Shown here: positions 136 to 26,798 of the stretch, piece after piece
How the letters are laid out: the number at the start of each line of letters is the position of its first letter
Numbering within the stretch: position 1 is the first letter of the stretch
Assembly: GCA_012295275.1 (NCBI GenBank)
Contig: CM022676.1
Coordinates: 12,834,001 to 12,898,000, forward strand
Source of the DNA: Chrysomallon squamiferum
Lineage: Eukaryota > Animalia > Mollusca
Length of the DNA stretch: 64,000 bases
Direction of reading: 5' to 3'
The notes under the pieces: generated by a model
The model's input: only the letters and a program-made list of their open reading frames with translations
The model's database searches: none
What the model was told of the DNA's origin: nothing
Translations under genes and position numbers: made by a program

Positions 136-2535
136 AGACATTGAGTCGAAGTACACTAGATTCAGGTCTGGTTTGATTTGGTCTGTCTGTGAACAGATTC
201 TCAACAGTACACTTGTACTTATCTTCATTGTCTTCTTTTGTTGGTGTGATTGAGAAGTTGGATCCCACAAATGAAATGTCATGTTCATTTTTGATCCAGT
301 GAAATTTAGCTGGTGGATTTCCAAACTTACTTCTTGGTAAAGAACAAATCAGTGAACCTGCTTTTCCTTCAAGCCAGCGTTGTGTGGGGTTTGAAGACAA
401 AGATGGCTGACTAGGCGGATCTGAAAATAAATCAGTTGTTAATTACTAAACTGATGAATTGCAAATTAAAAGTGCATCTTAATTTGAAATTGTCACACTA
501 CAAATATGTTACTACTAGCATATGATTGAATAAACATTAACTTTAACCAACAGATCACAAATAAATCCACAAGTGTAACTCTTAATTGGATATATATTAT
601 TTTTAATTATTGAAAGTAAACAATATCTTTAGTAAATGCATACATACATACATATACACATATGTATACACACAAACAAATATATATGTGTACGTATGTC
701 TGTATGCACACACCGATGTTGAAATATATGCAGATATATTTTTACAAATTAATCACAAAAGAAAATCTAATGAAACCAACAAAAAAAATTTCCAATTTGA
801 AAGATGAATGAATATTTTGAACACTTAAATAAATAATAATCTTGAAACAGAAAACAAAAAAGAAGAAAATAAATAAATAAATAGAATTTACATTAAAAAA
901 TAGAATAATAATTCATTTTAGAGTGAGGTAGGATCAAACTCACAGTAAACAGTCATGTTGACAGATTTATTTTCAGTGTAGCCATCATATTTCCAGTAAG
1001 AAGTACAAACACACAGTTTGTTATTCTGAGTCCTGTTAGCTATGAAAGATATTCTACACGTTCTGGTTTCTTCTCTGTCAGAGCAGTGTACAGGATTATA
1101 ACATGTCCAGTTCAGATTTGGTTTTGGGTTTCCACCAGTTGTAGAACAGCTCAGTGTGACAGTGTCACCCTCAAACACAGGAAATGTTGTTCCTGTAATA
1201 ACCGGTGGTGAACTGGGAGGATCTGAAAATATTTGAATTTGACTCTGAAGCAATATTAAGACAAATCTCTCATTGTTTACTAACAATTATTTCCTATTTT
1301 ATTATTCTCCAAAAAAAAAAATAATAATAATAATATAAAATAAAAATACAAATCTCTCATTGTTGACTATCAATTATTTCCTATTTTATTATTCTCAAAA
1401 ATTAAAAAAAAAAAGTTGATGTTAATAAAAAGGTAAATAGAAATGTTAAAATGCAGCATACTGAATAGTTTGAATATCTGAGAAGTATATTAAAATAAGT
1501 AATATAGAAAAAATGTATTTGAAAATTAAGTATATATATATTCAATGTGAACTGGTTATTTTCAGATTGTTCTGTTTTATTTGTACCCTAATTTAATATG
1601 TGTATACTTTATATATAGTTATTATAAATTCAGACTGAGCAAAAAATAAAATAGTTAATTTGATGTAAATAATCTGAAATATCTGAATAACTCACAGAAG
1701 ACAGTCAGTGTTACAGTGTTACTTTCAGACTGTTTTGTTTCAGAGTTTGTCACTGTACACGTGTAAACATTTCCTGCTTCATTCCTGCTGATGTTTGTCA
1801 GTCTCAGTTGAGAGTTTGATGTGAGTTCATCATTTCCCAGCTTCCACGAGTAGGAACAGCTTGGCTTACACACAGCAACACAGTCAACACTGAGATTTTG
1901 TCCTTCTACCACTTCAACAGGTGATGTTAAACTGAGTGTAACAGAGTCTGGACCATCTAAATAATAAAATTAAAACATCATCTACAATATATGTGTTGGA
2001 ATATAATTTTACTTCATATTCTACTTGCATACATATGCACAAACACCTGTACATGTGCACCTGCACACATTCACACACAGACTAATTTAAATATGCCATT
2101 TAGTTTTAAAGTCTAACACTGCACTTTAAAAATGATTAAAAATCCAATAACTGTTTATTTAATATGATAATTACTTACAGTAAACAGGTAAAGTATAATT
2201 GTTGCTCTTGATTAAAGCTGTATTCAGTTTACACCACCAGAGTGTTTCATCATCAGCTGAAGCTCTGTTTATGGTCAGTGTGTAGTTCTTTACACTTGAT
2301 GATCCAGCGTCTGTCCCTTCTCCACACACTGGAGTGTAGCCAGGAGCACGAGCGAATACAACACAACTACCACCAGTCTGATAGAGAGAACCTTTCAGTT
2401 CTGCTTTACTTTCATTTAGTTTATAAAATTTTACTGAGTCACTGAGACCATCAGCCTGAGACACAGAACAAGTAAATGAAAATTTCTCATTCAACACTGC
2501 ATAAGACAAAGAACCAGACATCTTCAGTGATACAC
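133..2535 (-). CDS. Gene B (partial, continues off the left edge): Ig-superfamily receptor ectodomain, paralog of gene A; V-like Ig plus 3 C2/I-type Ig exons
   Basis: Four phase-1/1 exons with AG/GT ends: 2179-2535 (357 nt, V-like, FTC...WWC), 1696-1956 (261 nt, CVAVCKPSCSYSW...YTC), 944-1222 (279 nt, LSCSTTGGNPKPNLNW), 133-420 (288 nt, LICSL...GNPPAKFHW...YKC). The first three match gene A exons 1-3 in length; exon 4 is 1 nt shorter than in A. Leader exon not securely found. Confidence 0.9.
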
Positions 2536-2584
2536 CTGTAAAAAAGAGGAGAAAATTCAACAGTGCTTTCTCTTATTGTTTATA

Positions 2585-2626
<42 letters not shown>

Positions 2627-2659
2627 GATATATTTTTTTTTTCTGTCAATTGTTTTATA

Positions 2660-3600
2660 ATTCAAGCCGGTTGCTAATAATAGATTAGTGTCGGCCGCTA
2701 ACTCACCATAATAATTGTAGTTTCTAGATAGATCGCTAAACACTCCGCTGAAATTTTGAATTATTTAGTGTTTCAGAGTAAACAGCTACCAAACTATTCA
2801 CATCCATGTAAAATACAGATTTTAATGATCTTTCATAAGACACTGTACCAACTAGTCACCATGATAATAACTCCCAAAAGAAACCAAATACTGTAAGAGC
2901 ACAATGTTTTGAATAAAGAAAAGTATAAGACATATGTATATCAATTTGATTTGAATGTGTGATGTACTATTGCACAATCCATTTATGGTTTAATTCCACT
3001 TGATATAATGGTACGTACATTACATTATTTTGAAAAATGAATTTTATTCACACAAAAAGTAAAAATAAATTATAGATGTTGATAAACGTAATAGCGGACT
3101 TTATGCAACGCAATCAGCGCGCGTTTATCATTGATACGTGTGAAATATAATCCAAGCGTGATATTTGTATCTTAAAAAAAACTGATCAGAAGGATGTATA
3201 TAAATCATTAATTTTCTTGGCAAAAGCGTGGAAAATGATTTGCCTGTATCTATATCAGTCAGTAAGGCTCCAGCCAGTCTCAGAAACAATTTTGTTTAAT
3301 ATTGCTACGTAGACGATAGCATTAAATAAATACAAGCATAGAGAAATTATTATGAAAACAATCGTCTGACAAACTAAAGTTCATGAAATTATATGCCAAG
3401 GCGTAAAGGTATTGTACAGAGAAGAATTCCCCTATAGGTGTCATTTCATTCATATATGATCTGTGACAGCGTCTGTTAATCCGTAAAGAAACATTCATAA
3501 AACATATTGATAATAAATATATCCATACGCTGGTTGATTTTGCATGATATTCACTATACCGCCTGATTTCTATGATATCAAACACACAACAGAAACTGCC
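2660..3600. promoter_or_regulatory. Putative bidirectional promoter region between divergent genes B and C (CpG-retaining)
   Basis: Roughly two dozen CpGs in ~0.9 kb counted by eye, versus a few per kb in gene A introns; lies between the 5' ends of oppositely oriented genes; kappaB-like GGGGAATTCT on the minus strand at 3423-3432. Confidence 0.45.
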
Positions 3601-3755
3601 ACCCCAGCTGTTGCTATTAATTTTACCTGCAGTTATTTTGTTATATAATTAATATTAATACTGGTTTTTTTAAGTGAAAATAAAAGATGAGCATTATCTT
3701 CATTATTATTATTGGGATTGTGGTAGTGTTATTATTTTTATTGTTGTTGTTGTTA

Positions 3756-3805
<50 letters not shown>

Positions 3806-5514
3806 TTATACTATCTTGTTTAACATATTTCGTTTCAAATATAATCTGACAGTTAATGTATCTGTGTGGTATTTTTGGTAATATTTTTAAAACAGGTGTT
3901 TGTTATGAAGAAGCTTGTATAGTGCAGTCAGACAAACTCAGTGATGCAGGTGGTATAGCAGTTGACTCTGTGATAGGTTTTCTTGTGGCTTCTGTGATGT
4001 ATGGATTTCTTGAAATATTCAGAAGAAAAGGATACATCTGTAAGCGATAACATTTAACTGTATAATATTTATACTGAAAACAAACCAAAAAACAGTCTTC
4101 TTTTGTTGTTTGTTTTGTTTGTTTTTTTATTTTTAAATATAACAGTAAGGACATTTTTACATTCACTTTATGGAGACGAAAATACAAGAAATATCTGAAA
4201 AATTAATACACTGTGTAATGTTGAAATCAACATAATGAAATTGATTCAAATTGCCGTTTGACTAAATGAAATATTTTTTTTTATATAAATATCTAAAATG
4301 TATAATTTAAGATAGGTATACACCCAAATGTACAATCAAAATTCTTAAAGGCAACGCTAGCAGATCAGAATAATTCAGTTAATAATAATGTTCTTTCTAC
4401 TTACTTGACAAACGTGTGTGTGTGTGTGTGTATGTGTCCGTGCGTGTTTAGACTCTTAGAAAGATATATCTATAAAAATATTTGCATGCAAAGATAGAAA
4501 ACTTCAGACATTTTACTTTTTCTGCAGGTAACAAAAATGGATTTACTACGTAAGTTTATTTAGGTTATTTTTACAAAATTCATAAAACAAAAATTTAACC
4601 TTTTTTTTTAGATTTAGTATTATCTAATTTGTGAATGGTACTGAAAATGTACGTTTCACATAAAAGTTCATGTTCAGTGCTGTTTGAGTAAAACTGTTTC
4701 ATCTGTTACGATCTGTCTATTTGTTATGATTTGATTTTATGTGATATTTGCACTTACTTTAAAATAATGGTTTCTTCTTGCAGATACGATGATGTAAATC
4801 TGAGACCAGTAATCACACAAACTAGATCTGGTAAAACATTTAAAAACAGTTAAATTTATGGTTATTTTATTGAAATTTTAAAATAATTTTATTGAGATAT
4901 TCTACATGATGCTTTTATAAATAATAATAATAATTATTATTATTATTATTATTATTTATTTATAACTGAGAAGTTAAAAATATAACTAAGTGACACATAA
5001 CTGTTGGATTATACTGGTCTCACAAAATATAAATGATCTGTTTGTTTTTCACTTAAATTTTTTCTTGCAAAGTGATTAATTGTAATTCACAGAAAATGTG
5101 TCTGAGACTGATCAGACAAATCAAACATACGAAGGACTAGAAGAAAGGAGAAGCTCGGCAGATTACACTAAACTTCATTTATATGAAAACATAAAAAAAC
5201 AGGTTGTAAAAAGAATAATAATAATAATTCTGCAACAGTATAATTATTTTTTTAAAAGAATGTTTATAGTTTGTTGCTACAAAGAAATAATCTAAATATA
5301 TTTTGTCTTCTTTGAAAATATGTTGTTATGATATCCAGTCATAATTAATAATGAAGTGTAACATTAATAAAGTACAGCTTAAAAATATCTGGGCACAAAC
5401 ACTGTCATCACATAGAAGGAAGATCGGTTTACCTCAATTTCTTATAATAATGTCTGAAAAAATAAAACTTCCACTTTGAGATTATGACTCAACTAGTGAA
5501 GCATTTTGTAATAA

Positions 5515-5554
<40 letters not shown>

Positions 5555-5846
5555 TGCTATGTAAATAATACTAGAATAACAACCTTCAAATAGAATTTGA
5601 TCAATCCATGATACAGAGCAAAACTTTGATTATAGCAGTTAATTAATCCTCTGATTAGACATATAATTACAACAAAACTGCATTTATCAAAATCAAGGGT
5701 TTACTCTGTTCAAAGTCCCAAAGTTATATTTTAATAATAATAGTAAATAATAGCTATAAAAAGTTTTAGCATTTATTTATTTATTTATTTATTTTAAAAT
5801 TTCATCTCTGAAAGACATTCTTATTTTCTATTTTCAGTGCAAATGA
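3393..5846 (+). CDS. Gene C: small single-pass membrane protein with ITAM (adaptor-like, or orphaned 3' half of an activating Ig receptor)
   Basis: Exons 3896-4039 (TM: GVCYEEACIVQSDKLSDAGGIAVDSVIGFLVASVMYGFLEIFRRKGYI), 4528-4549, 4784-4830 (TYDDVNLRP) and 5093-5202 (TYEGLEERRSSADYTKLHLYENIKKQ) splice in frame with canonical AG/GT ends. Candidate last exon 5838-5846 (CK*). Candidate first exon 3393-3408 (MPRRKG) is weak. Confidence 0.72.
5093..5202 (+). CDS. ITAM-encoding exon of gene C
   Basis: YEGL-x8-YTKL fits YxxL/I-x(6-8)-YxxL/I and is followed by LYENI (YxN). Confidence 0.8.
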
Positions 5847-6599
5847 TTTGTAAATCGTCATCTATGGATCAGAAGAAACAGTATAAAATGAAATGTTATA
5901 AATCTAATTGTCATTTTTTTTTTTTCAATACTGATCCTAATTTTCTTTTCTCTTCTATTTTTTTTTTTTTTAAATCAGTTTTTATCATTCAGTTTACATT
6001 GTACTTTGTTATATGATTTAAACTAACAAAATACCAGACGAATATTAATAACTGACAGGACATCCAAACAATGATTTCCATAAAAGAGAATTTCATTATA
6101 AGAATCCAGTGGTGGTCATTTTGAAAGTGGCCTCTCATGATAGGTCCATCATTCGTCTGTATCAGTTTTATCAGTCCTGGGAAACTGCATAAATTAATAT
6201 AATCTCTCATGTAAGACTTACATCAAATACACACTTGCTTATTTCATGAACTATTTATTTCTTTGTGTGTTTGATCGCCCTCCCTTGAAATCATTGATAT
6301 CATATTTTGGTGATATTACTATTGAAAAAATTATACTCTAACAAAATGTACCATCAAACCTCCTGAATACTCGTGCAACCATAAATAAAATATCTGAAGT
6401 GGTAAAGTTTTGTCCAAAATATTTTTTTACAGCAGCCATTTCAAAAAAAATGCTTTAGGAATTTATATTGTTTTCTTTACATGTAACATCGCTAACATTA
6501 TTCAGGAGATCCCCTGAACAAAATTATAATCTCATGGATGAAATTAAATGTTCATGGTCTCTTGTTACACGGACTAATAATTGTGTATACTGTGATATA

Positions 6600-7389
6600 C
6601 AGTGGTACCTTGACTTACGAGTTTAAATAATTCCTTGACCAAGCTCGTATCTCAATTTGCTTTTATATGAAATAAATTTTTGCAACTGAAAGTAATTGAA
6701 ATAACATTAATCTGTTCCAGCCCCCTAGAAACCACCCCATTCTTGTTTTTTTGTGGTTTTTTTTTTTTTTTTTGGTTTTTGTTGTAACGTGCTTTTAAAT
6801 AAGAAAAAAGTATTTATAAATGACAAATATTGTATAAAAAACCAAATTAAAGAGAATGTAAAGAAATAAATTGGTTTTATAAAGTGTATTTATCTTGGAA
6901 ATCAGACAAATTATGTTAACGCCTTTGGCTGGAGTTACAGCCTTTGTCGACTCCTACAGCTTCAGTATGGTACACATCATAGAAGTACTACGCTCGGACT
7001 ACCTAGCCAATTCGACTACAAACACACCTCGCTCATGATTTTCTATGAATTCATGCTTTAATTAATTGAACAGCATCCGTTCTTCTTCTTAACAGCACTG
7101 TCCTTTGCCCTCACTTTCCTAGGATCCATGGCAGAAAAAATGAAATTTGGCAAAATACTGCACAAAACAGAGATAGTCCGCGGCGAGGTAACCACATGAA
7201 GTAAACGAGTGAGACGCGGGATGCTGGCCAGATGTTATTGTGTTCGTTGCGCCAACTAACAGTAGCATATCTGAAGCTCCCTTGTAACTTGGATTTTAAC
7301 TCACAACTCAAAGCAAAAAATCGACTGGGCGATTGCTCATAACTCGAAAAACTCGTAAGCTGGGGTACTCGTATGTCGAGGTAACACTG
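6600..7389 (-). mobile_element. Tigger/pogo-like DNA transposon deletion derivative, copy 1
   Basis: TIRs cagtggtaccttgacttacga...tcgtatgtcgaggtaacactg with TA flanks; minus-strand remnant of the transposase N-terminus (MDPRKVRAKDSAVKKKR). Confidence 0.85.
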
Positions 7390-10300
7390 TATATGTGGTT
7401 AACCCTCTGCCTTCTAATTGCTCTAGTAAATTAGTAATACCACATTTTGCGAGTACTACCAGTCCAAAAAATTCCTGCCCAAACTAAAACTACAACCTGC
7501 TTCTACTTTTGTTTTATCTGTATCTTTTTTTCTTAATTTAATATAAAAAAAATCAAAACAAAAAACAATAAATGAAAAGTTCTATACAAAAGTAATAGAA
7601 AAATATTTATTTGTAATGAAAGGAATAACAAAAAGTATATAAAACATTGTATGTTTTATCACACAACTGTAAATATGAATAAAATATTAAGAAGATAAGG
7701 CAAACATTTCTATGTTATTGAAAAGATTTAAAGTTGCAATATAACTTTAATTAATATTAAATATGATTTAGAATTTCTACCGATGAAATGGATATAATAT
7801 ATATTTATTTGAAGACATTTGTTAGATATAATTATGCACATAACACCAACTGCATGGAGGATTGTAAACATTTTAAATGTTTATCTGTATGCTTATAAAA
7901 CTTTATTAATAAATCATTTAATAAGCACTACATATTTCTATCTTCTTTTGTTTCAGAACTCATTCTGTAGAATATAAATTAATGACATAAGGAAAAATTA
8001 TTTCTTATATTTATATGTCACAGCAAATTGTTACTGCCAAACATTATTGTTTTATTAAAATAAGCAGAAGACATTAATCCTCTTTTAAAATAGAAAATCT
8101 TGTCAAGGTTTGATACATAGATAACCAAAGCATAAATATATATACATATTTGGTTAAAAATGCGTCAGAAGCAGTGATTTTCATTCAGAAATATTAGTTA
8201 ACAGAAATATTATTGTAAGTCCATCATATACCAGTCTAGAAGAACAGAATATTTATTATGTTAGTATTTTCTTAAATTTAAAATTATTATTCATACACAT
8301 AATACATTAAAAGAGTTATGTTTATTACTTTTGTGATTAGCTAATGCGCATTAAATACATGTGAAATAGTGAATATAGATAGAATATAGAAATGATAAAT
8401 AATTAAAAAAGAAAAATGTTTACAAATAGAAAATGTAAATTAAAATACTGAAAGTAATTAAGTAAAGGTTTTTGGGGGTTTTTTAGCGCAATGTTTCTAA
8501 TATCATCCAAAAAAAAAAAAAAAAAAGGAAACTTGCCAAATTAAGTAATAAAGAAAACCAGATTCCGAGTTGCATTCATTATACATCTGATTATGACAGG
8601 TTCATTTTACTGATTCATTAAGAGATATTTTGAATATATTAAGAAAATAATTTTAAAACAAGCTGTTACAAAATGTATATTTTATTTCTTATTTATTTGT
8701 ATAATAAGATTTTAATATAAAAATTATCAAACATCTATTAATGTTTCTTTCATTCAGAAGTAACATTTACAAAATGGAAGCAAAAAAGAGCAATTTCCAC
8801 TCACTTATATAACAATAATGTACAAAATGACATACTGCAGATTGTATTTAGAAAACAAACAAAAAGATATGTAACAGAACTAATGAAACTTTGCACAATC
8901 ATTTAAATCATTGTGATTAATAAGTATTCAGAGTAAAAGAAATTATTAAATGAAACCTTGCTTTAAGAAAGACTAAATAATGTAGATTTGACACTTTAAC
9001 ACAAATGCACACATATACTGACATAGTAGAAAGAAATGGTATGCATTTTAATTCAGTTGAATACTTTAAAAATTATTCATTTGGAGATTACTGATTGTTG
9101 AAAATATTACCTCATTTAACTGAACTTGGCTGCTTTTAAAGTTTGTTAATTAACATATACAATTTTGTTAATTATCAACAGTAATATAATGTTTGTGAAT
9201 TTCTATTCCAATTATTTACATTATCAGTTCACATTTATCCAAAAATAATTACTAGGCATTCCTATAGTTATCAACATACATTTTAATACATCCCTGAAAA
9301 TGGAAAAGAATTATCTAAATTTGATATAAAAAAACACAGAATAAAGAAATAATAAAGAAAAATTGCATTAAATATTAAACTCTGGTACATATTAAGAGTG
9401 TGCATAACATGAGGAATCTTGCATAATGCTATAACTAGTTAATTCTTGAAACTCTTAAACGGAGTCAGTGTTCTTATTTGATTCAACAACAACTATAACA
9501 AAAAAAGAGTACCATCAATTTTTACTGTCAGCTTTTTAACATGGCACCCTAAACTGACAGGTGTTTTGCACAGAATCACATAGCATTCATACACAATATT
9601 CTAAGTTATTGACAACAAGAAATTTTGCAGTTAGATGTAAATAAATAAATAAATAAATAAAGGAATCTATTGTTATGAAGGAATTTATGACACAAACTTT
9701 TACAGTTTCCTTTCAAATGAATTAGTGTTAAAGCTTCTAAATGCAAAATTTTATAAAACAGTATGCAAATATTTTGAATGTGTAAAAGAAAAAGAATAAA
9801 TTTTCTATTTTAAAGAGAAAATGTATATTCTGTTGAAATAACTGAAAAACCTTTAGAGTCGAAACCCTGTTGGATCAATATTGTAGGGATACAAAAAATA
9901 TCCAATCAGTATTAACTTAAATTATAAAATCAGTTGCATGAACTCATAATAAAAGTTTCATGTACATATATGTAACCAATTAAACTAATTAACAAAGTCT
10001 ATTTAAAATATCTATGGTGCATTTGGCTCAGCAAGAAACTATAGAAATGAAGAAGAGGTCTACTGCTTTTAAATAACATTTAGGTCACAAAAGTAATACC
10101 AAGGTTCCTTCTCTGATAACAAATAACTGATTAAGACAAATTAACTCTTTGTTTGATCCATGACCTTCTTTTATGCTTCATTTTAATATGGCTCTGCATC
10201 ACATGACTAACTGCTTTATGTAACAATCAACTCATTTACTAGAGTTGAGTGTTTTCTTTGAAGTTAGGTGAGGCAATTTAATACTTTGCTCAGTGTTTTA

Positions 10301-10821
10301 ATGACTCCTTTATCCGACAAGTGAACACTAATTACAAATCATGTCTTTTGACAATAACAAGTCACCAAATTTTTTGCCACTTTGGTTATATTCTCACTGA
10401 AACATTATGGCATTGACTATACTTACCTTTTTATACCACATAGCAAATTATTTTAACTTAAATAATTGGATTTGGTTAAACTGTTTTCCATATGTCTGGT
10501 AAATTTTAATATCTTTAGGGAAACTGGATACATTACTGTCTAGCAGAAAATATCAACATCACATAAAGTTACATTTAGAAAACATTTGCAGAATCCTCGA
10601 TAAACCATATTTTTTGTAATGCTAATTAAATAAACCAAAATGATTATGCAAAGTGGTCTTTATTTTAGTTATAAAATCAAAAATATTTATATTTCAAGTA
10701 AGTGTATAATACAAAATAATCAAATACATCTACTAAAATATATCTCTGGAATGCAATAAACAGTTTCCCAACGAAACTCATTAAGTAGAAGAAAAAGTTA
10801 GTTTTCACTCTTAGGCTCTGT

Positions 10822-10986
10822 TTATTTATCATCTTTATCAGGAAGTGGTTCTGCTTTCTTGTTCCAGTCAATGGAGACGTACTCCACTTTGTCCTGTGTT
10901 TTGTGAACTTGTTTACTTGGTTGTGTGTTAGAGAAATCTATACCAACATACAGCAGCCCATCTTCATCTCGGCCATGATTTTGTCC
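10822..10986 (-). CDS. Terminal exon of gene A with tandem ITIMs
   Basis: GQNHGRDEDGLLYVGIDFSNTQPSKQVHKTQDKVEYVSIDWNKKAEPLPDKDDK*; both motifs fit (I/V/L/S)xYxx(I/V/L); tyrosines 23 aa apart. Confidence 0.85.
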   Translation of the reverse strand, partial: GQNHGRDEDGLLYVGIDFSNTQPSKQVHKTQDKVEYVSIDWNKKAEPLPDKDDK

Positions 10987-12452: not shown

Positions 12453-12498
<46 letters not shown>

Positions 12499-14633: not shown

Positions 14634-14666
<33 letters not shown>

Positions 14667-16147
14667 AACATGGTTACATTTATTTTTGACATTGTTCCCA
14701 TTCTTGAAGATCTCCAACCTAAACAAATGTACACACACTGGACTGTAAAAACCAGATTCACTTGGGACCAACACGATTTGCTGATTTAGACAGAGAGCTG
14801 GTTTATAAACATTGAAATGACATCAAATTGGAATATATTTTATTACAAATGTTACAGTTAAATGTCTATCAAGTGAAGTGGAGAAGCAGTCTGATGACTG
14901 TGGTTTTTCATATTTCTCTCCGAAGCTAACTCCTACATAATGAGAACCATGTTTAAAAATGGGTTGTAAAAGCTGTTTTTGGTAGTAATATATTTAATCT
15001 CTTTCATCATTTTAAAAACATCAGTGTATGAAAGTTCAGTCATTGTTTAAGAAGTGACTGTACTTGCAAAACTGTGTGCTGGTGCTGACAGAACTAATTT
15101 CTTTATAAACTTGTCTTTTGTTCTGCAATTTACACCTGGAATCCAAAACAGACAGCATATGGATTAGACAGGGTTTTATTCATAACAGATTAGCAATAGT
15201 TGGATGGGACTTTGAAATGGTATCGGGTATTTGTTCCCCCATAATCTTTAATTAATGTGAAATTTTTAGACTTGGATTACAATACATTTTTCTAAATTCA
15301 TTTTCCTCAAAATATTCACATCAGTGTACTAACTGTCCTGAGTATCTTGATAACTGGAAAAAAGAATTAGAAAAATAAAGTCATAATCTGCAGTTGGGCA
15401 TGGGCAGATTATCCAGGCCTGAGTAACTTTTCTCCTTTAAACAACTGATTTTCCTAATGTCAAAAGACAAATAAATGAGAATACCGTTTTGGTAGAATGA
15501 TATACTTTTATTACATGTATGTGTACAGTGTGAGAATATACATGATAATTAAGAGACAAACTTTTATTCAATGATTGCTGGTTGCACATGTAAGTATGGG
15601 CTAACTATACCTAATTGAAATATGTGGGATGTGAAAGATGGGGTAATTAATAGAAAATATTGGAACAGTGTTCTCTGTATTGTGTAAGCCTTTTTCAACC
15701 AGTTTAACACTGCTAGTACATGGTGTTACCACACACTCTTTACAACTGAACCAAGAACGGTTTCAAAAGGTGAAAACACTTAATGGCATTACAAGCTTGA
15801 CTACTTCACCAAATAATCCTCCTCATCATAATCACTGGTGTATAAAATAATTATTAGTGATAAATGGATTTATGGATAAATGTTTTCATCTTAACTGAAA
15901 AAAAAAGAAATGGGAGTTGTGATCATGTACCTGGACAAATGTATTCCCAGTTATTTCTCCACCTACCTACAGTTGTCAAGGTGCATTTGTGACTATCTAT
16001 TTGCAGTGATGTTTAGTCAGTTTTAACACATTCACAGTGTATACAATAATTACCACAAATAGAATGCAGAACTATACCTGAAAATAATCACCGAGTTGGC
16101 GAGAAACAAATATTCTCTGACACTGGCTTACACAGAAATCTGCATTA

Positions 16148-16209
<62 letters not shown>

Positions 16210-19200
16210 ATGGGGTTCATCATAGATGTGTTTCTACAAAATAACAGAAATAAATTATTTTTTGTTTATATGTATCTAAATAAATTATTGTTTAATAAAA
16301 TAATATATTTTTCATTTGTATTTTAACACAACAGAAAAGTTGTATATGGTTATATGAAAAGAATATTTCATGGAAACTATTTGTGCTAGAGATTCTAAAT
16401 ATATATATTTATTATCCAGATTTAGAATATCTAGCAAAAATAGTTTCCATGCAGCATCTTCCCAAACATCTTAGGATAATATGAAAGGAAATATTGAGAA
16501 AAACCCCAAAAGAGTTTTATAAACCATATTTCCATTAAGCGGTGATGTTAGCCATTATTATTATTATGTTATCTGTGTATATCCACTTCCTACTGCAAAA
16601 AACCTGAATTATTTACCTAAAAAAATAAATGTCTTAGATAATTTCCTAAAGAGCCATATCAAAAACTAAAAAACTATATTTTTTATTCAGATTTTATAAT
16701 TTTTGGCCTAGCATGTCCCCTTAACTGATAAAAAACAACAAAAGTTAGACATGAAATGTTAAAACAGTGAGATATAAACAAAACAAAAAGACAAATATGC
16801 ATTGGCATTATTGAGGAAGGAATTAACGAGACTGAAATCTGGTATGACTTGTTTTTGGCATCCTTTGTTAATATTATTATTGTTTATTGGTCATAAAAAT
16901 GATTAAAATAATATTGGACATGAAAATCAGAATGGAACAGATAATAAAGATACATTGATAGATGGATGGGTATACATAATTTACTTTAATTTTACAATGA
17001 AAGAAAAGGAAATCATATTCATTATCAGCATTTGTATGAATATTGCTAAAAGTAGATGAATATAAGTAATGTATTTTTTAATTGTAATAACTGAAAAGTT
17101 GTACTTAGAGTAAGAAAACCATTTTGACTTTCATGTTACTAAATTCTCCCAGAACAAATGTTTATTTTAATTTTTTTACATATAAATAAACTAATACCTA
17201 CCTGATGGTTTTGATTTATTTAAATTGTTATCTTTTGATGTATAGTACAAATCATTGTCTTCCAAAACTGGAGTTAAAAAAATAAAAAATAAAAATATTA
17301 ACTGTCATGAAAATAGAGAATCAGAAAAAAAATTCTTAAAATAAATAAATAAATGAAATATTTATAGATGTAATAAAATTAAAACTACCATTATTTTATT
17401 TGGACATCAAAAGTGTAATTGGTTCTTAATTGATTTTTATTATTATTATTATTATTATTATTTTATTTTTTATTTTATTTTTTTATTACATTTATTTTTA
17501 CATATACAGTGGTACCTCGAGTTACGAGTGCTCCAACTTTCGAGTTTTCCATGTTGTGAGCAATTGCCTGGTCGATTTTGTGCTTTGAGTTGCGAGCCAA
17601 AATCTGAGTTACAAGCGAGCTTCAGATATGCTGCTGCTAGTTGGCACAACGAAAAACACAACATCCACCCAGCATGGATCCTAAGAAAGTGAGTGCAGAG
17701 AAGAAGAGGATCATGTCCATTGAATTAAATCATGAAATCATAGAAAAATATGAGCGAGGTATGCATGTAGTCAACATGGCTAGGCAGTACAAGCATACTA
17801 CTTTTATGATATGTACCATACTGAAGCAGAATGAGTCGATAAAGACTATAACTCCAGCCAAAGGCATTAAAATAAGTTCTAACATGTGGACCTCTGTCCA
17901 TGAAAAGATGTAGAAACCCTGACCCTGTACACTTTACAAAACCAATATATTTCTTTACATTATCTTATATTTTGTCTTTTTATACAATATTTGTCATTTA
18001 TACATATATATTTCTTAATTAATAACATGTTGCAAAACATTTGGTTGGTTTTGGGAGGGCTGGAATGGATTAATAGGATTTCAGTTAATTTTATTTAGGA
18101 AAATTGATTTGATATACGAGCAAATCGAGTTACAAGATTGGTCATGGAATGAACTAAACTCGCAAGTCAAGGTACTACTGTATTTTTAACCTTAATAAAA
18201 CTCAAACCTGGCAATTTGAGTTTTCTTTTGTCATCAGACTTCAAATACAAATCATTATCCACCAAATCTGAAGCAAAAACAACAAAATCTTTTTATTTAC
18301 TTATATATTAAGTCTCACAGGACATAACATCTATATTAAAGCAAATAATAGCTGTAGCCATGTAAACATTTCTAATGTTCGTCAGCTACTGAAGATAAGG
18401 CACTGTCTTTTGTCTTTCTTCTTCAAACAAAGAAAATGTATTTCTGATAAACACTGATTTTGTAAATCAAAGATAAATGTTTATTTCTAATGGATTCTTG
18501 AGTTAACTATATTTCATGTTCAGTTTGGTATTTCAGAGTAATATATTGTTTATGAATCACACCTGGCATTACTCGACTCTTTAATCTGTCATCACGATTC
18601 ATGTAGTACAACTCATTGTCTTCTAGAACTAAAAGATGAATCAGTTATTCAAATAATTAATATATTCCATTCTCATTTCAAAAGTTTATTATGAATTTAA
18701 TGCAGTTAAATGGCATTTAAAACTAAAATGATTAGTTCAAAGTTAAAGATTCCAAAACTGTTCTGCAACAATGAATGACAACATCTTTAAATAAGTGGTC
18801 TAATAAAATTCTTTATACTCGGACATTATTACTTTATTGTCATTTTCGTAACATTAGCAGAGCATGAAAAGAAGTAGTATTACAAAAATCTGAATTCAGC
18901 AATTTTATCTATTTCCATAAAAATTGGTATCTTCTCACATATATGTCAGTGTCATAGATGGTGATTTTTACTTTTCTTTCTTTATTTTCTGACAAGACAA
19001 GACATTTTTTTTTCAGATCTTGTTAGTTTGATTTCACAACTACTCTAACAAAATATTTTTCAGATGTGATTAATTCTGATAATTTTAGTTAAATAAAACT
19101 GATTACCTGGCAAAACACATTCCGCATTACAGTTTGTCTGCCTGCACAAAAAATAATAATAAGATACACATTAGTACAGATAGAGAAATTTAACCTTTTT

Positions 19201-20542
19201 ATAGTTAATTTTATTATTTTGAACTTCAAATAGTTTTCTTTCCTACTTAAATATTAAAAATTAGTTATTACTGCTATTGTTTTGTTGTTTTGAAAGTTTC
19301 TTGATCATCAAAAATATCATAATGGAGTCATTGTAATAAAGAAGCTTCATGGATCAAGTAAGACAAACTGGAAAGGAAACTGGCTAGTATTTTCCAAAGC
19401 ATTTTCTGTATAAACATATTTTTAAATTTTTATCATCCTATAAAATTATTTTAAAAGTGTAGCCAACACTTCAACATACATAGGTGTAAATTTTGTTTAA
19501 CCATTTTGTGTTGTTTTCTTTTTTCTCCATTATTTTCATTATTTATTCAGTTATCTTTTTTTATTATTATTTTATTTTGTTGCTTGCTTCCTGAAGTCTG
19601 ATTCAAACACAGAATATCAGAACATGTACACCATACTCTGTGCAAATTAGATTGTAATACTGAAATTATCAAACATTAAAAACATTGTATTTAAAGTTTA
19701 AAAAAATGATGTATTTTTTAATGATGACAATCACAGACTTTGAGAAAAAATAGAGAAGAATGAGCATTTTTTGTTTCTTTCATAATACCTGGTTTTATCA
19801 AATTACACAAATGTTACTGAAACAATCATAGATTTATAGCTTGCTTGCTTCAGGGAAACACTTTGTATTAAATAAACTATTTTAAATAAAAATAAAATAA
19901 ACCACCAGCTATCAGCAAACGAAGAGAAAATATAAAGATTTCTGATGAGATTTATTAACAAACTACTATATACATTTCATATGGTGATTTTTGATATATA
20001 TATGCGTATTTTTGAGTGAGGTAAACTCTTAAGAAAAACAACAAGAAAAAAGAAAATGCAAAGAAAAAGAGATGGCTTCAAATAAAGGATGTAAACTTAG
20101 TAAAACTTCAGCATATAAACCTTCAGATGTGTTGAATGATTCCAGTAACATTAGAATATGTTGTTAAAACAAAACACTTTTTTGATACCATTTCTCATTT
20201 TTCATTTTTCTAAGATCTATATTTTGGTTGACATCTGGACTTTGTTTGGGTTTAGACCAAATTCAGGCTAGCTATTTATGTTACATGATTCATATATATA
20301 ATAGGTGACCCAAGCACATTTAATTAATAAGATAAACAAAACAAAAAATGTTTGGTATACCTGAATGAAGATTGTTCCAATATGAGTTGCATTAATAAAC
20401 AGCAAAACTTAACTAATTATGTTCCTCACATAAATAATGACTAATGAAATACAAACAAAGAAAAGTCACAGGGAAAGTAAAAACAAATTAGGATGATTTT
20501 TTCTTTTCTTTCTTATTCATCTGGTTTTAATAAAAATAATAA

Positions 20543-20574
<32 letters not shown>

Positions 20575-23500
20575 GGAAAATATACTCACAAAGCATTTTC
20601 AGCATCCTTTTCTGAAATATAAAAATTAATAGAAATAAAAATATCAGCAATAATAAACATTTTTTCAAAAACTAGTAAATGTAAATTCAAATGACAAATA
20701 ATTATCCCAAATTTTATAATTTTTATTTTGTAATTATTTTTTCTTTATTATGCATTAAATACCACTTATTTGACTAAGTTTATTATTTAAAATTATATAA
20801 AATAACAGAATACAGTTCTCAGATAATGAATATAATTAATACTTTTTTTTAAATTGTCCTGTTTACAAGTAATAAAATCATACTCTTTTTGGTGGATAAT
20901 CCTGGTAATACCCGTCTTCTAAGTAACACAATCAGTGTCACTATGACAACAATGACAGTCACAGAACCAACAGCTCCTCCTACAGCTGCACCAAGCAGAG
21001 CACCTGGATCACTCAGCTTTTCTAAATCTGTCATAGATAAACAATATTTTGCATTTATAAAACTGCTACAAAAAATAGGAACAATAATATTTTACTGTTC
21101 TGAAACCAATAATGTTATTGCACTACTTGCTAATAGCTGCCTGAGTATTAACTCCAGTTTGATCTCTCAGATAGTCCATTTGTTTTCTTAAAACTTCTGA
21201 AAACAAACCCATATAAATGATAATTAAAATAAACATACCCTCTACATGTACCAATCACTTGTATTAATTCTGACATGACACAAACTTAGCACAATCTTTT
21301 TTTGATGAAGCCAAATATCAAACATTTCATGGACCATGATTACCTCATCTACTAAACAGGAATTATCAGTAACCTATTAGTATTAAACTTGATTTGGGGT
21401 TGATATTTTGCATGGATCAGTCTTGGGAAGATCATTATTTCAATACATTCAATCAATAATCACACAACACACTAACATATAACAACAAATAATAAAATTT
21501 AAAAAAAAAGAAACCTGTAATAATTGCACTTGAATATATATTTCAGTTTAAATTATGTAGATATTTGTCAAGACGAAAACAAATATTTTAAAAATTATTA
21601 TATTAATAGAAAATGTTAAATGACCTTCTGTGGTTACTTTAATGACAACATAATTGCTCATATTGTCTGAAGTTCTTGTGTTTTCAGCTGAGATTCTCAC
21701 ATCATAAACTGTTTTATCTTTGAGACTGGTGATGTTATAAAACACTTTCTGTCCTTGTGTTGAGTCATCAAACCAGTTACTTGTCCAAGTAATCCAGTTA
21801 GAGTCACTTTGTGGTTTGTACTGCAGCATAAATCTTTGTTTGAAATTACCACCTGGGTAGTTAGGTAGCCAGGACAAGAACACTGTGTCTGATGTTGATT
21901 CTCTTTCTTGTTGGAACTCTTTAGGAGGAAGAGGTGGACCTGCTCCAGTTAGGTTCACAGAAAACTGAGAACATCCAACTTCATTACAGACAGTCAGTTT
22001 GTACGTTCCAGTGTCATCTTGTGTGAAGTTTGTGATTTTCAGTGAAATTCTGTATGCTGAGTCTTTAATTAGTTTGCCGTGAATTTTCAGTGTGACATTT
22101 GTCTCCTCAACATTCGTATTATTAAAACTTATTTCACTGTCAGATTTCATCCAGGTATAATTGTTCATAGTGGGTTTACAAAACAAAGTTTTTACTAATA
22201 AAACTGACTTTCCAATTTCAGCTCCCACAATGTCATGATTAGTTTCCATAGTGATCTCTGGATTTGCTGAAATATGAAAAGGAAGAAAAAAGATAAAATA
22301 TATAAATAAATAAATAAATACATAAAATGATTTTCTAAATCACTGACACAACAGATTCATATAATTATTAATAAAATGAACAACAAATATTAAAGTCAGT
22401 CAGAATGCATGCCATATACTTAAATAGCACATGCAAACAATAATCATTCTAAAATATTTCTAATCATTGTTTTGTTTTGTTCCTGATAAGAAATGACACT
22501 CATTTAATGATGCTGTAGTGTTTTGATGTTTATTTAGAAAAATGTCTGCGCTCTAACACAAAGGAAGTGATTGGTTCCATTGTTGAAACAGATATATCGT
22601 CAAATCAACTTTTAGAATCTGAATTTTGCCTGCAGGTTAGTTTACTTATTCCATGTAACAAAAAGATCAAAATACAAGTGAATAAACATTAATATGAAAA
22701 GTTTTGTGTCACTTGCAACATTTTTGGCAAGCATTTCTGTTTTCATTTACTTGAATGTTTTAAACTACAATCTGTTCTATGTAATGGAGAACAGAAGCTG
22801 TGGGTGATGAGAAATGGGTAAATGTTTACAGTACTTTAAAAAAACAAAGAAATATTAAAAGCTATCATTACAAGTTTAAAACTTAAAGTGTTTATTTTTA
22901 AACCAGCATATCTACAAATTATATTTTAAAATATCTTTAACAAATGCATGAAACATATTTGAAGTTTTCACCTTTAACATAAAATAAACTGTAGCCAGTC
23001 TGCTCCAAAGTTCCACTTCTGTCAGGAATCCCGTTGTGCACACTACACTGGTATGTTCCACTGTCCTGATACGAAGCAGAAACAAACATCAAACTGTATT
23101 TGTTACGTCCAACATGTCTGCCTGTCACTTTTCTAACAAACACTTCATTCCAGTAATGTTTGAAATCTGAGAAGTTCATGTTGTCAGGACGACCATCAGC
23201 AGAACAGTTTAATTTTAGTAACATGTTTTCTGTTAAATTTTCAGATGGGAAGCTGACATCAGGAGCATCTGAAATAAGTCAAGAAAAAAAAAAAAAAAAA
23301 AATCAAATTACCAGGTTTGTTTTGGTAAATTATTTAATCTGACATGTTATAAAGATTATATATTGTAAAATCATTTGAATGTTGTTGTTGACAAACATCT
23401 CCATATTTCAGTTATTTATATAATTGGAGTAATTCTGTTCAAGTGAAATGTTATTATGAGATTTACAATTGACAACAAGTCCCCCCCCAAAAAATCAATG

Positions 23501-24972
23501 AAACAGGGTTTTTTGTAAACTTTTTAATCTGACATGTTACAAGGATTATATAATGTAAAATAATTTGAATGTTGTTGATGACAAACATCTCAATATCTCA
23601 GCTATTTATATAACTGCAGTAATTATATTACAGTGACAATGTTAAGGCAAGACTTACAATTGACAATAACTTCAGTTTCAGACGAGTTCACAAGATTTCC
23701 ATGGTTACTGGTTGTTACAGTTGCTTCACATGTGTAACTGCCAGAATTATCTCTACTGAGGTTTTTCAAATCTAGTATTCCATTATTTACTTGAATATTT
23801 CCATCAAATTTCCACTTGAGTTCAACAGAGCTGGGGTTGCTGTCTGCTGTGCAGTTCAAGGTCAAATTGTCACCTTCTTTTACAGGATTTAATTGTGATA
23901 AAGATATTTCAATTCTAGGATAATCTACAAAATATTAACACTGTAACATTTTATTAAAATCTTATTGAAACAATTCTTTATTGAAACAATACTTTCCTGA
24001 AACAGTTACTTTATAGGCACATTCAAAAACAGCTGCAGAAGTTTCTAGTTCAACTGAAGTAGACAAATAAACATAAAGATAATTTACAGTAAACACTGAA
24101 TAGAAGTATATATTTAAGTTAAATTTTAACTTACAATAATCTTTGATTTGAAGCAGATAGTTAAACTGAAGTATAACTTACAGTAAACATTGAGTTGAAA
24201 TAGATATTTAACTTCAAGTATAACTTACAGTAAACTTTGAGGTGAAGTAGATAGTTAAATTGAAGTATAGCTAACACTAAATATCAAGCTGAAGTAGATA
24301 TTTAAGACTAACTTACATTAAGCATTGAGCTGAAGTAGATAAACTGAAGAATAACTTACAGTAAACATTAAGTTGAAGTAGAAAGTTAAACTGAAGTATA
24401 ACTGACAGTAAACATTCAGTTGAAGTAGATAGTTAAACTGAAGTATAACTTACAGTAGACACTGAGTTGAAGTACATAGTTAAAGTGAAGTATAACTTAC
24501 AGTAAACATTAAGATGAAGTAGATAGTTAACTTGAAGTATAACTTACAGTAAACATTAAGTTGAAGTAGATAGTTAAACTGAAGTATAATTTACAGTAAA
24601 CATTAAGTTGAAGTAGATAGTTAAAATGAAGTATAACTTACAGTAGACATTGAGTTGAAGTACACTAGATTCAGGTCTGGTTTGATCTGGTCTGTCTGTG
24701 AACAGATTCTCAGCAGTACACTTGTACTTATCTTCATTGTCTTCTTTTTGTTGGTGTGAATGAGAAGTTGGATCCCACAAATGTTATGTCATGTTCATTT
24801 TTAAACCAGTGAAATTTAGCTGGTGGATTTCCAAGATCACCTTCTGGTAAAGAACAAATCAGAGAACCTGCTTCTCCTTCAAGCCAGGGTTGTACAGGAT
24901 TTGAATACAAAGATGGCTGACTTGGCGGATCTGAAAATTAAATAATTCTTAATTAGAAATCTAAATAACAAC

Positions 24973-25015
<43 letters not shown>

Positions 25016-26294
25016 GTAATAACAACAATACACAGAAAAGTGAAACTGGTTTAAATATTAAATGTATACATGATGAGAACACAATAACATTGTTTATAAG
25101 TGTGACAGGAAGAAAACTCACAGTAAATAATCATATTTGTAGATTTACTTTCAGTGTAGCCATCATATTTCCAGGAAGGAGTACAAACACACACTTTGTT
25201 ATTCTGAGTCCTGTTAGCTATGAAAGATATTGTACATGTTCTGGTTTCTTCTCTGTCAGAGCAGTGTACAGGATTATAACATGTCCAGTTCAGATTTGGT
25301 TTTGGGTTTCCACCAGTTGTAGAACAGCTCAGTGTGACAGTGTCACCCTCAAACACAGGAAACGTTGTTCCTGTAATAACCGGTGGTGAACTCGGAGGAT
25401 CTGGAAAATAATTTTATTTTAAATGAAATAGAAAAATTAGCATTTTCATCAAATCTTCATTTGTAGTTAGTAAAAGTGTTTTCATGAAAAGTAAATATTA
25501 ATAAATCGATAAATCGAACAATTTTAAACTGCTAATATGAATGTTTGAAAGCAACTGTTTTTTATGATTAACATTTCCATCATCAATCAAATTAATGACT
25601 TTTATATGCACACTTAAATTTAAAAGAAGAAAAGATTGAAAATAATATTCCATTAAATTAGTAGTTACTTTGAGATATTAAACATTCATGTTTTGCAAGA
25701 AGAACTGAATAACTCACAGTAAACTGTCAGTATCAAGGGAATAATATTATAAACTAAACACTGTACAACTCACAGTTAGCAGTCAGTGTCAACTGGTTAC
25801 TTTCAGACTATTTTGTTTTAGACTTATCCTTATTTAAATCTTGTTAATGAAATAGTTAAAATAGTTAAACTGATGTAAAGAGTATTAAAGACAAATCTGA
25901 ATAACTCACAGTGGACAGTCAGTGTTACAGTGTTACTTTCAGACTGTTTTGTTTCAGAGTTTGTCACTGTACATGTGTAAACATTTCCTGCTTCATTCCT
26001 GCTGATGTTTGTCAGTCTCAGTTGAGAGTTTGATGTGAGTTCATCATTTCCCAGCTTCCACGAGTAGGAACAGCTTGGCTTACACACAGCAACACAGTCA
26101 ACACTGAGATTTTTTCCTTCTACCACTTCAACAGGTGATGTTAAATTGAGTGTAACAGAGTCTGGACCATCTGAAATAATTAAATTATTATTAAATAAAT
26201 ATTACCTACCTGTGAGAATGTAATTTTACTTCATATTCTACTTGCACACACATGGAGATACACATTTGCATGTGCATTTGCACACACTCACACT

Positions 26295-26344
<50 letters not shown>

Positions 26345-26798
26345 CTAATTTAATTATGCCATTTAGTTTTAATGTCTAACATTGCACTGTAAAAGTGATT
26401 AAAGTTCAAATAACTCTTTAGTTAACATGATAATTACTTACAGTAAACAGGTAAAGTAAAATTGTTGCTCTGTTTTAAAGCTGTAGCCAATTCACACCAC
26501 CAGAGTGTTTCATCATCAGTTGAAGTTGTGTTTATGGTCAGTGTGTAGTTCTTTACACTTGATGATCCAACGTCTGTCCCTTCTCCACAGACTGCAGTGT
26601 AGCCAGGAGAACGAGCGAATAAAGAACAACTATCACCATTCTGATAGAGAGAACCTTTCTCTCCTGCTTTACTTTCAATCAGGTTATAAAATGTTACTCT
26701 GTCACTAAGACCATCAGCCTGTGACACAGTACAAGTAAATGTAAATTTCTCATTCAACACTGCATAAGACAAAGAACCAGAAATCTTCAGTGATACAC
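10822..26798 (-). CDS. Gene A: ITIM-bearing Ig-superfamily receptor (7 Ig + FN3 + TM + long Tyr-motif tail); +1 frameshift in Ig4 as assembled; leader exon(s) upstream unresolved
   Basis: Exons with AG/GT ends and consistent phases: 26442-26798, 25910-26170, 25122-25400, 24642-24930 (289 nt, +1 indel), 23658-23924, 22972-23268, 21625-22266 (Ig+FN3), 20884-21027 (TM), 20590-20611, 19107-19141, 18563-18628, 18208-18267, 17202-17267, 14208-14342, 13875-13976, 12523-12558, 12005-12099, 10822-10986 (stop). Tail motifs: NELYY, NDLYL, NDLYY, SLYSVV, VYENV, TYANA, LLYVGI, VEYVSI. Confidence 0.88.
12454..12496. repeat. (CA)n microsatellite
   Basis: Perfect dinucleotide run. Confidence 0.95.
16152..16203. 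repeat. (GT)n microsatellite
   Basis: Perfect dinucleotide run. Confidence 0.95.
17507..18180 (+). mobile_element. Tigger/pogo-like DNA transposon deletion derivative, copy 2 (intron of gene A)
   Basis: TA|cagtggtacctcgagttacga...cgcaagtcaaggtactactg|TA. ORF 17641-17913 encodes a CENP-B/psq-type HTH N-terminus (MDPKKVSAEKKRIMSIELNHEIIEKYERG...ICTILKQ); no DDE domain. Confidence 0.9.
20884..21027 (-). CDS. Transmembrane exon of gene A
   Basis: DLEKLSDPGALLGAAVGGAVGSVTVIVVIVTLIVLLRRR: uncharged hydrophobic span with a glycine zipper and a basic stop-transfer. Confidence 0.9.
21625..22266 (-). CDS. Ig7 + fibronectin type III exon of gene A
   Basis: YTW...LKITNFTQDDTGTYKLTVCNEVG (I-set), then GPPLPP...VFLSWLPNYPGG...FMLQYK...YNITSLKDKTVYDVRISAEN (FN3). 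Confidence 0.9.
24050..24665. repeat. 47-bp tandem array (~13 units) of the Ig4 exon 3' end plus GT donor in a gene A intron
   Basis: Donor-like positions 24641, 24594, 24547, 24500, 24453, 24406, 24359, 24316, 24275, 24228, 24181, 24134, 24087. Minus-strand unit: CTACTTCAACTTAATGTTTACT|GTAAGTTATACTTCAGTTTAACTAT. Confidence 0.92.

Follow-up and report, generated by a model that had tools for sequence, protein, structure and literature searches.

Probable exon-limited homogenisation of domain 2 and possible diversification of the V domain in paralogous immunoglobulin-type receptor genes of Chrysomallon squamiferum

Why do two related receptor genes of the snail Chrysomallon squamiferum differ so strongly in their V-like domain and so little in the domain that follows it? 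The question arises from a stretch of 64,000 nucleotides (the window), in which a preliminary description had noted this contrast between two paralogs, copies A and B, and had ascribed it to diversifying selection on the recognition surface of V. Both copies are encoded on the minus strand. Copy A comprises a V-set immunoglobulin (Ig) exon (2179–2535; identified by its AG/GT bounds, its translation, its invariant columns and the fold predicted for copy B), a domain 2 (D2) exon of I/C2 type (1696–1956), a domain 3 (D3) exon (944–1222) and a domain 4 (D4) exon (133–420), beyond which the gene lies outside the window; all four exons are open, and their splice sites are intact. The corresponding exons of copy B are V (26442–26798), D2 (25910–26170), D3 (25122–25400) and D4 (24642–24930), followed by Ig domains 5 (23658–23924) and 6 (22972–23268), a single exon encoding Ig domain 7 and a fibronectin type III (FN3) domain (21625–22266; Pfam fn3 E = 8e-8, which passes the cut-off), a transmembrane (TM) exon (20912–21027) and, within 10822–20611, seven cytoplasmic exons that are predicted from splice signals and phase alone and join in frame. 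The predicted layout is V-Ig6-FN3-TM, and the predicted tail carries three motifs, SLYSVV, LLYVGI and VEYVSI, that match the ITIM consensus [ILVS]xYxx[ILV] given in the available part of a preprint on Alr genes (bioRxiv 10.1101/2022.03.04.482883).

RNA contigs demonstrate the splicing of V-D2-D3-D4, and in one of them the V exon of copy B is joined to D2. In one transcript, the V exon sits spliced behind a different Ig-like exon, which leaves the earlier premise of a membrane-distal V insecure. A minus-strand exon of a second V-like type, V0 (see gene C below), was not found upstream of A or B, and the signal-exon candidates there were unconvincing; likewise, the interval 2536–10820 upstream of A yielded neither a signal nor a V0 exon and holds orphan plus-strand exons of another gene. 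A loose end from run X7 was rejected as a signal exon, as it is unmatched in the window and looks like an intron acceptor. Among the RNA contigs listed, none carries a spliced A-type V transcript, which does not prove that A is silent. Near 24749, a short run of T has one base too many, which shifts the frame of the copy B D4 exon in the window; a B-like RNA contig does not have this base, and the homopolymer-type error indicates that the assembly contains small mistakes; nevertheless, it is most improbable that A and B are merely two haplotypes or the product of a mis-join, since intron stretches of A were recovered with 0 differences from two independent DNA runs, the core of the B V exon was recovered with 0 differences from two other runs, and the introns of A and B are largely unalignable, unlike those of alleles.

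The V domain is, according to structure prediction, a true V-set fold. The model of the copy B domain (pLDDT 98) contains the DSSP strands A, B, C, C', C'', D, E and F and a broken G, and its top structural matches are chains from antibody and TCR V-domain entries (best TM 0.78); the Pfam V-set match reaches only E = 0.003, under the cut-off. An alternative prediction from a two-sequence alignment gave pLDDT 56 and was not used. The B- and F-strand cysteines (Cys22 and Cys101) are invariant in 77 of 77 sequences, an additional Cys57/Cys70 pair is also invariant, and the position of the C-strand Trp is occupied by Phe in 71 of 75 relatives; copy A has both cysteine pairs and Phe36 in place of the Trp.

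The V exons of A and B are 357 nt each and differ in the amino acid at 24 of 118 complete codons, through 34 nucleotide changes apportioned into 28.5 replacement (Nd) and 5.5 silent (Sd), compared with 3 of 86 residues in D2 (Nd 4, Sd 1; Fisher p = 0.0003 for amino-acid divergence). The difference counts of the preliminary description are thereby confirmed, and the peptides that it quoted are correct. Its claim that V diverges far faster than the neighbouring domains did not hold up: 8 of 92 residues differ in D3 and 15 of 95 in D4 (Nd 18, Sd 6), with p = 0.02 and p = 0.48, respectively, in the test against V, and domain 2, rather than V, is the outlier. V exceeds the pooled D2–D4 in amino-acid divergence (p = 0.005), with no difference in the ratio of replacement to silent changes (p = 0.42). 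D2 has 1 silent change against 5–6 in each other exon, which by itself is not significant (p = 0.24). Furthermore, D4 also shows a dN/dS of ~1, indicating that loose constraint is not special to V.

What sets D2 apart is a tract, comprising this domain and the 5' half of D3, that is poor in all changes, silent ones included. Within the 1185 aligned exon nucleotides, the tract test found a 200-nt stretch with 1 difference and a 400-nt stretch with 7, a depletion seen in 0 of 2000 permutations, and A and B are identical over runs of 139 nt in D2 (1761–1899 in A) and 125 nt in D3 (1060–1184), the 3' half of which has diverged; the D2–D3 and D3–D4 introns are hardly alignable between the copies. 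D2 is not a slow domain, as its long-term divergence is as fast as that of V: when compared with 10 V-D2 pairs of relatives, V has 48% and the adjacent D2 49% identity, and those pairs show 56% (V) and 52% (D2) identity among themselves, values in which V identity is favoured by retrieval of the relatives via V as 50%-identity representatives. In the sequencing runs, from which the best 40 of 228 matches and the best 40 of 92 variant rows were taken, D2 lies on one contig with a depth of 2422 in DNA run X1 (intron contigs, 117–283) and 199 in run X2 (intron contigs, 8–16), unlike V, for which up to 9 contigs per site occur among the matches listed. One RNA contig joins a B-identical V half to an A-identical D2; contig assembly loses rare variants and can create chimeras, so both this join and the deep D2 contig are suggestive only.

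A nearly change-free tract, a deep single contig and a V-like long-term rate together point to homogenisation of D2, in the pattern expected of concerted evolution, where a tract poor in both silent and replacement changes belongs to a domain whose long-term rate is not low. Consequently, the contrast between V and D2 is in itself no evidence for selection on V. Gene conversion of D2, which the preliminary description had named as the explanation that would undo its own, largely accounts for that contrast, although separate and weaker evidence for diversification of V remains. The homogenising process would be gene conversion, for which recent exon replacement would look alike, and the D2 sequence may be common to about 10–13 loci. 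We consider it probable, with some reserve, that D2 and half of D3 were homogenised by exon-limited gene conversion and that V, which likely escaped, may diversify on its C–C'' strands.

Whether V is itself under diversifying selection is a finer question. For the whole exon, dN/dS is 1.75–2.2 at kappa 1–3 (p = 0.21–0.09), which is not significant, and the kappa estimated from the data is 1.1–1.9. The conserved core is spared, as the 24 changes leave all 20 family-conserved sites untouched (p = 0.007), and outside this core pN/pS rises to 2.0–2.8 (p = 0.02–0.10). The adjacent intron has diverged at 12/98 positions (0.12), a level from which the non-core pN of 0.14 does not differ (p = 0.40), and the pooled exon pS (18/312) lies below this intron value (p = 0.04), such that the neutral rate may be underestimated from silent sites. 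Pooling V with 23 further variants gives 47 replacement to 10 silent changes (p = 0.15, 0.06 and 0.03 at kappa 1, 2 and 3), which becomes 37 to 9 without the gapped zone (p = 0.28, 0.15 and 0.10, respectively), and four fully phased V forms give 21 to 4 (p = 0.12–0.26).

The intron comparison and the D4 rate are what would be anticipated if positive selection were absent, that is, if surface residues in V and D4 change almost neutrally within a young family of redundant genes, with conversion as the sole source of the mosaic; copy A would then perhaps be a 5'-truncated duplicate, in keeping with the missing upstream exons and transcript noted above, and the C–C'' patch an ancient tract acquired from a different copy, as suggested by one RNA form, F3, that has several residues in common with A. 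We regard this account as unlikely, given that the sparing of the core shows a V that does not evolve like a dead gene, that all V samples tested lean towards replacement, and that the exons and splice sites of A are intact.

The location of the variation provides a further line of evidence. The preliminary description had placed the A/B replacements in two patches corresponding to the predicted C/C' and FG regions. Although 10 of the 24 changes fall in these 26 codons (naive p = 0.013), the clustering disappears once the patches are treated as chosen after the fact (p = 0.89; a two-window scan reaches 10 changes in 89% of 600 random placements), and single-window scans give p = 0.47–1.0. On the predicted structure, with the front face assigned by strand alternation rather than coordinates, the A/B changes occupy 7 of 25 front-face and 17 of 93 other positions (p = 0.21). 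The variation in other copies or alleles lies mostly in strands C–C'' and favours the face originally proposed. Two RNA forms of V differ by 11 nt within codons 28–55, 10 of them replacement and 1 silent, and other forms carry a one-codon insertion in this hypervariable patch (26632–26715 in copy B; BC loop, strands C and C', and C'C'' turn). Among the variants listed, 17 of 32 positions are variable in C–C'' against 17 of 86 elsewhere (p = 0.0006), and the non-A/B variants occupy 8 of 25 front-face against 7 of 93 other positions (p = 0.003). This variation favours the C–C'' half of the proposed face; its FG patch is not secure.

Taken together, the non-core pN/pS and the C–C'' variation speak for diversifying selection on the recognition surface of V, the whole-exon result and the intron-like pN speak against it, and we place the two sides about level. 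It is likewise an even call whether copies exchange the C–C'' patch and selection maintains its variety. That selection on the GFCC' face alone explains a V outrunning its neighbours is less likely still than the near-neutral account: the spared core, the C–C'' variants with their insertion, the V-set fold and the excess over the pooled domains all suit it, but D4 is nearly as divergent, D2 lacks silent changes too without being slow in the long term, the A/B changes show neither more clustering than random placement gives nor an excess on the front face, and significance depends on kappa. The preferred reading is thus homogenisation of D2 beside a V that may diversify.

The two copies are likely members of a multi-copy gastropod family of modular Ig cell-surface receptors. 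The window holds a related short gene, C, on the plus strand (56183–63433), with a signal exon read by eye (56183–56237), the V0 exon (57619–57948), a D2-like Ig exon (about 60262–60511; 49% identity to D2) and a transmembrane and tail exon. A profile comparison of V0 with V found no similarity (probability 0.4%). A full HMMER scan with V retrieved 153 relatives, whereas word-indexed protein searches with V returned no match; the 20 relatives that were looked up are all proteins of Gigantopelta aegis (e.g., XP_041373960, XP_041372978, XP_041372799 and XP_041362182), of which 12 are on 53.4 Mb contigs, apparently one chromosome. They share the V type (four invariant Cys, Phe for Trp and W-x-C), the V-D2 pairing and V0 modules, in one case with an FN3-TM-tyrosine tail, but show 39–57% identity per domain, and blastp of D3 and D4 among the fetched G. 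aegis proteins gave weak matches and no close one. The records assign no function, and "CEACAM8-like" on one relative is a record name only. Literature searches found no paper on this receptor family, although supplementary tables of genome papers on G. aegis or other snails could list it; the family is apparently undescribed, and its evolutionary pattern has precedents in other families of immune receptors.

Several characterised families resemble the present genes in part. Siglecs have an essential F-strand arginine and lack the F-strand cysteine, whereas A and B have no Arg in residues 95–107 and retain Cys101. SIRPs combine one V with two C1-set domains; here, D2 and D3 give no C1-set match, D3 has a weak C2-set_2 score, and V is followed by six Ig domains and FN3. 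Nephrin/Sns-type adhesion receptors have 8 Ig domains and 1 FN3, a layout that V0, V, six Ig, FN3, TM and tyrosine tail would match; the likeness is one of layout only; nephrins are conserved and single-copy, and the present family is fast and multi-copy. The N domains of CEACAMs lack the B–F disulfide, unlike the present V with its two invariant cysteines. In the available part of a study of CEACAM1 paralogs (PMC7042247), these are similarly IgV-IgC receptors, encoded in tandem and bearing ITIM or ITAM tails; exons are reported to be affected by gene conversion more than introns, and diversifying codons lie in or near the CFG face. There, however, the V (N) exon is mostly homogenised with one paralog escaping, whereas the present genes have a homogenised D2 beside a V that is not. 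The Hydractinia Alr genes, as described in the accessible text of the preprint cited above (bioRxiv 10.1101/2022.03.04.482883), also form an invertebrate cluster encoding V-I-FN3-like-TM proteins with ITAM/ITIM tails, and Alr12A/B exceed 90% identity except in domain 1 (64%), for which exon shuffling is invoked; every Alr domain 1 lacks the pin cysteines that are invariant here as Cys22/Cys101. Copy B has at least seven Ig domains, and no allorecognition phenotype is known for the present locus. Among gastropods, Biomphalaria FREPs are immune genes with variable Ig domains, and the excerpt consulted describes FREPs, CREPs and GREPs (VIgLs) as secreted with a C-terminal fibrinogen or lectin domain (PMC11999971), neither of which occurs in copy B, which ends in FN3-TM-tail; the clustered polymorphic transmembrane genes of Biomphalaria PTC2 show, in the portion available, silent divergence above replacement divergence, unlike V (PMC7494358). 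These comparisons with FREPs/VIgLs and PTC2 are of kind only.

By architecture and analogy, copy B could be an inhibitory receptor whose V domain or domains bind a variable foreign or self ligand and whose tail ITIMs would recruit SH2 phosphatases. A bolder and rather doubtful reading is that of an undescribed cluster of exon-shuffled germline V receptors with ITIM tails, in which V heads would be exchangeable on a homogenised stalk, copies would trade the C–C'' patch of these heads and selection would maintain its polymorphism, as a molluscan counterpart of CEACAM/SIRP or Alr that tells self or symbiont from foreign cells; the named relative in this gastropod lineage, G. aegis, is a symbiont-bearing vent snail. 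Domain mosaics with a divergent V head are known from CEACAM and Alr, so that the pattern is unsurprising, and the headline contrast owes most to an unusually uniform domain 2. The remaining value lies in the receptor family itself: to our knowledge, few variable membrane receptors with inhibitory tails have been characterised in molluscs, and if selection on C–C'' is real, this family would be a concrete candidate for polymorphic recognition in the gastropod lineage.

Copies A and B, two minus-strand Ig receptor genes with V exons at 2179-2535 and 26442-26798, respectively, have diverged as a mosaic, with 77 differences in the 1185 nt of the exons for V and the following Ig domains D2 to D4. 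Of the 118 residues of V, 24 differ, with 28.5 replacement and 5.5 silent changes; the corresponding figures are 3 of 86 residues for D2 (4 and 1), 8 of 92 for D3 (9 and 5), and 15 of 95 for D4 (18 and 6). The preliminary description held that V diverges far faster than its neighbours, with replacements clustered in two patches, and ascribed this to diversifying selection on the recognition face. Its difference counts for V and D2 are correct on recount; however, V is not far ahead of all neighbours, as D4 is statistically level with it (p=0.48), and the two patches hold 10 of the 24 changes, a number equalled by 89% of random placements in a test whose two windows were chosen after the fact.

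The contrast between V and D2 is best accounted for by recent homogenisation of D2 between the copies, probably through exon-limited gene conversion, an alternative that the preliminary description had itself named against selection and that applies to this contrast. A tract over D2 and the 5' half of D3 contains one difference in 200 nt (0 of 2000 permutations were as extreme); silent changes are also scarce there, and the introns beside it are hardly alignable between A and B. Simple constraint on D2 would predict long-term slowness, whereas D2 is as divergent as V in relatives: identity to 10 adjacent V-D2 pairs is 48% for V and 49% for D2, and 56% and 52% among those relatives themselves, in a comparison biased toward V identity since the relatives were found with V as the query. 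In two DNA runs, D2 forms a single contig at 9-13x the depth of diploid intron, a rough estimate because contigs drop rare variants, while V breaks into many contigs. One RNA contig, possibly chimeric, joins a B-identical V half to an A-identical D2. Exons resembling D3 (944-1222 in A) have a far higher read depth than D2 and, in RNA, join other upstream exons (loose ends at 1222); judged by these reads, D3 is thus reused in further genes.

V itself is, on the structural model, a real V-set fold (pLDDT 98, from 77 sequences) that matches antibody and TCR V-domain entries, carries an extra invariant cysteine pair, and has its C-strand Trp replaced by Phe. The 24 A/B changes all avoid the 20 core positions that 75 distant relatives conserve (p=0.007), and V is therefore not decaying. 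Outside this core, which was defined independently of the A/B comparison, pN/pS is 2.0-2.8, with p between 0.02 and 0.10 for the combinations of four thresholds with three kappas. The whole exon has a dN/dS of 1.75-2.19, not significantly above 1 (p=0.21-0.09), with kappa estimated from the data at 1.1-1.9. Contigs of four runs aligned to the V of B contain extra forms with variation centred, among the 40 of 92 variant rows listed, on codons 28-55, which span the BC loop, strands C and C', and the C'C'' turn. Two forms, present in runs of two studies, differ by 10 replacement changes and 1 silent change in these codons and share the downstream V half in the run X6; two others, only partly phased, bear a one-codon insertion. 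In the rows listed, variable positions make up 17 of the 32 sites in C-C'' vs 17 of the 86 outside it (p=0.0006); variants other than the A/B changes affect 8 of 25 front-face positions vs 7 of 93 others, with faces assigned by strand alternation; the A/B changes alone show no front-face enrichment (p=0.21).

Against selection stand the pooled variants, with 47 replacement and 10 silent changes (p=0.15-0.03), or 37 and 9 after removal of the gapped zone (p=0.28-0.10), and the four fully phased forms, with 21 and 4 (p=0.26-0.12). Furthermore, non-core pN (0.14) is close to the divergence of alignable adjacent intron (12/98; p=0.40), and silent divergence in exons lies below that of adjacent intron (p=0.04), so that the silent-site yardstick may be too short. 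Pasting of a conversion tract is another possible source of a localised V patch, and the dN/dS of ~1 in D4 likewise counts against selection on V. The preliminary observation thus holds in part, and its interpretation has partial support: probable D2 homogenisation largely removes the V/D2 contrast from the case for selection, separate and weaker signs of V diversification persist, and we consider the case for positive selection on V about evenly balanced.

In this window (31% GC), copy B is nearly complete, comprising V, D2-D6, D7 with a fibronectin type III domain, a transmembrane segment, and seven small predicted tail exons, in a phase-consistent chain with AG/GT ends interrupted solely by one extra base in D4. 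This base lies within a T run at ~24749 and causes a frameshift. Either an assembly error or a private allele probably explains it, since one RNA contig that combines a B-like D4 with as many D3 differences as B (10) shows just two gaps, neither of them at that position. The predicted tail carries three ITIM-consensus motifs; its 66-nt exons at 17202-17267 and 18563-18628 are mutual duplicates, each with a tyrosine pair. Copy A is visible from V to D4, the remainder lying beyond the window edge. The V-D2, D2-D3 and D3-D4 introns are spliced out in RNA contigs at the predicted ends, and the corresponding joints have zero depth in two DNA runs. In one RNA contig, the exon spliced in front of V ends in 30 nt, 26 of which are identical to the end of the exon for V0, a second V-like domain type; V is hence not outermost in that transcript. 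On the minus strand of the window, a search of the regions upstream of A and B found neither a V0 exon nor a convincing signal exon, and copy A may accordingly be 5'-truncated. A 47-bp minisatellite directly follows the D4 exon (13 copies in B, 24055-24662; also 1-153); its unit comprises the last bases of that exon and its splice donor, thus creating an array of donor-like sites. Shorter repeats of the end of the D2 exon occur in the D2-D3 introns.

V0 belongs to gene C (56183-63433, plus strand; V0 exon 57619-57948), a short relative with the order signal-V0-D2-like-TM, head to head with B. A full HMMER scan returned 153 relatives; all 20 of those examined come from Gigantopelta aegis. Most of these proteins are uncharacterised, and they share V, V0 and D2 modules in variable order, V being first in some and behind other domains in others. 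An Atlas look-up also indicated mollusc clusters, and the source is probably a gastropod. Tests for membership in Alr, Siglec, SIRP, CEACAM or FREP failed for this receptor. Just upstream of the V exon of A, plus-strand orphan exons of another membrane protein (3896-5240) encode a hydrophobic segment followed by YDDV, YEGL, YTKL and YENI motifs, with no ectodomain exons seen nearby. A Ty3/gypsy-type LTR retrotransposon (47946-52846; terminal repeats 97% identical) no longer has an intact gag-pol, which carries a frame change as well as two in-frame stops, and four decayed copies of one repeat (6595-7400, 17500-18183, 28112-28765 and 30028-30370; 70-82% alike) are probably a DNA transposon.

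A literature search, with most subscription journals outside its reach, found no paper on this gastropod receptor family, which appears undescribed. Its evolutionary pattern is already known: the copies resemble CEACAM1 paralogs, for which exon-favouring conversion and diversifying codons near the CFG face are reported (PMC7042247), and Hydractinia Alr12A/B, which are alike apart from domain 1 (bioRxiv 10.1101/2022.03.04.482883). Tandem copies would swap exon-sized tracts, homogenising the stalk exon D2 while V retains its core and varies on C-C''. By analogy, the encoded protein is probably a single-pass receptor with putative variable-ligand binding through its V domain(s) and putative inhibitory signalling through the predicted ITIMs.
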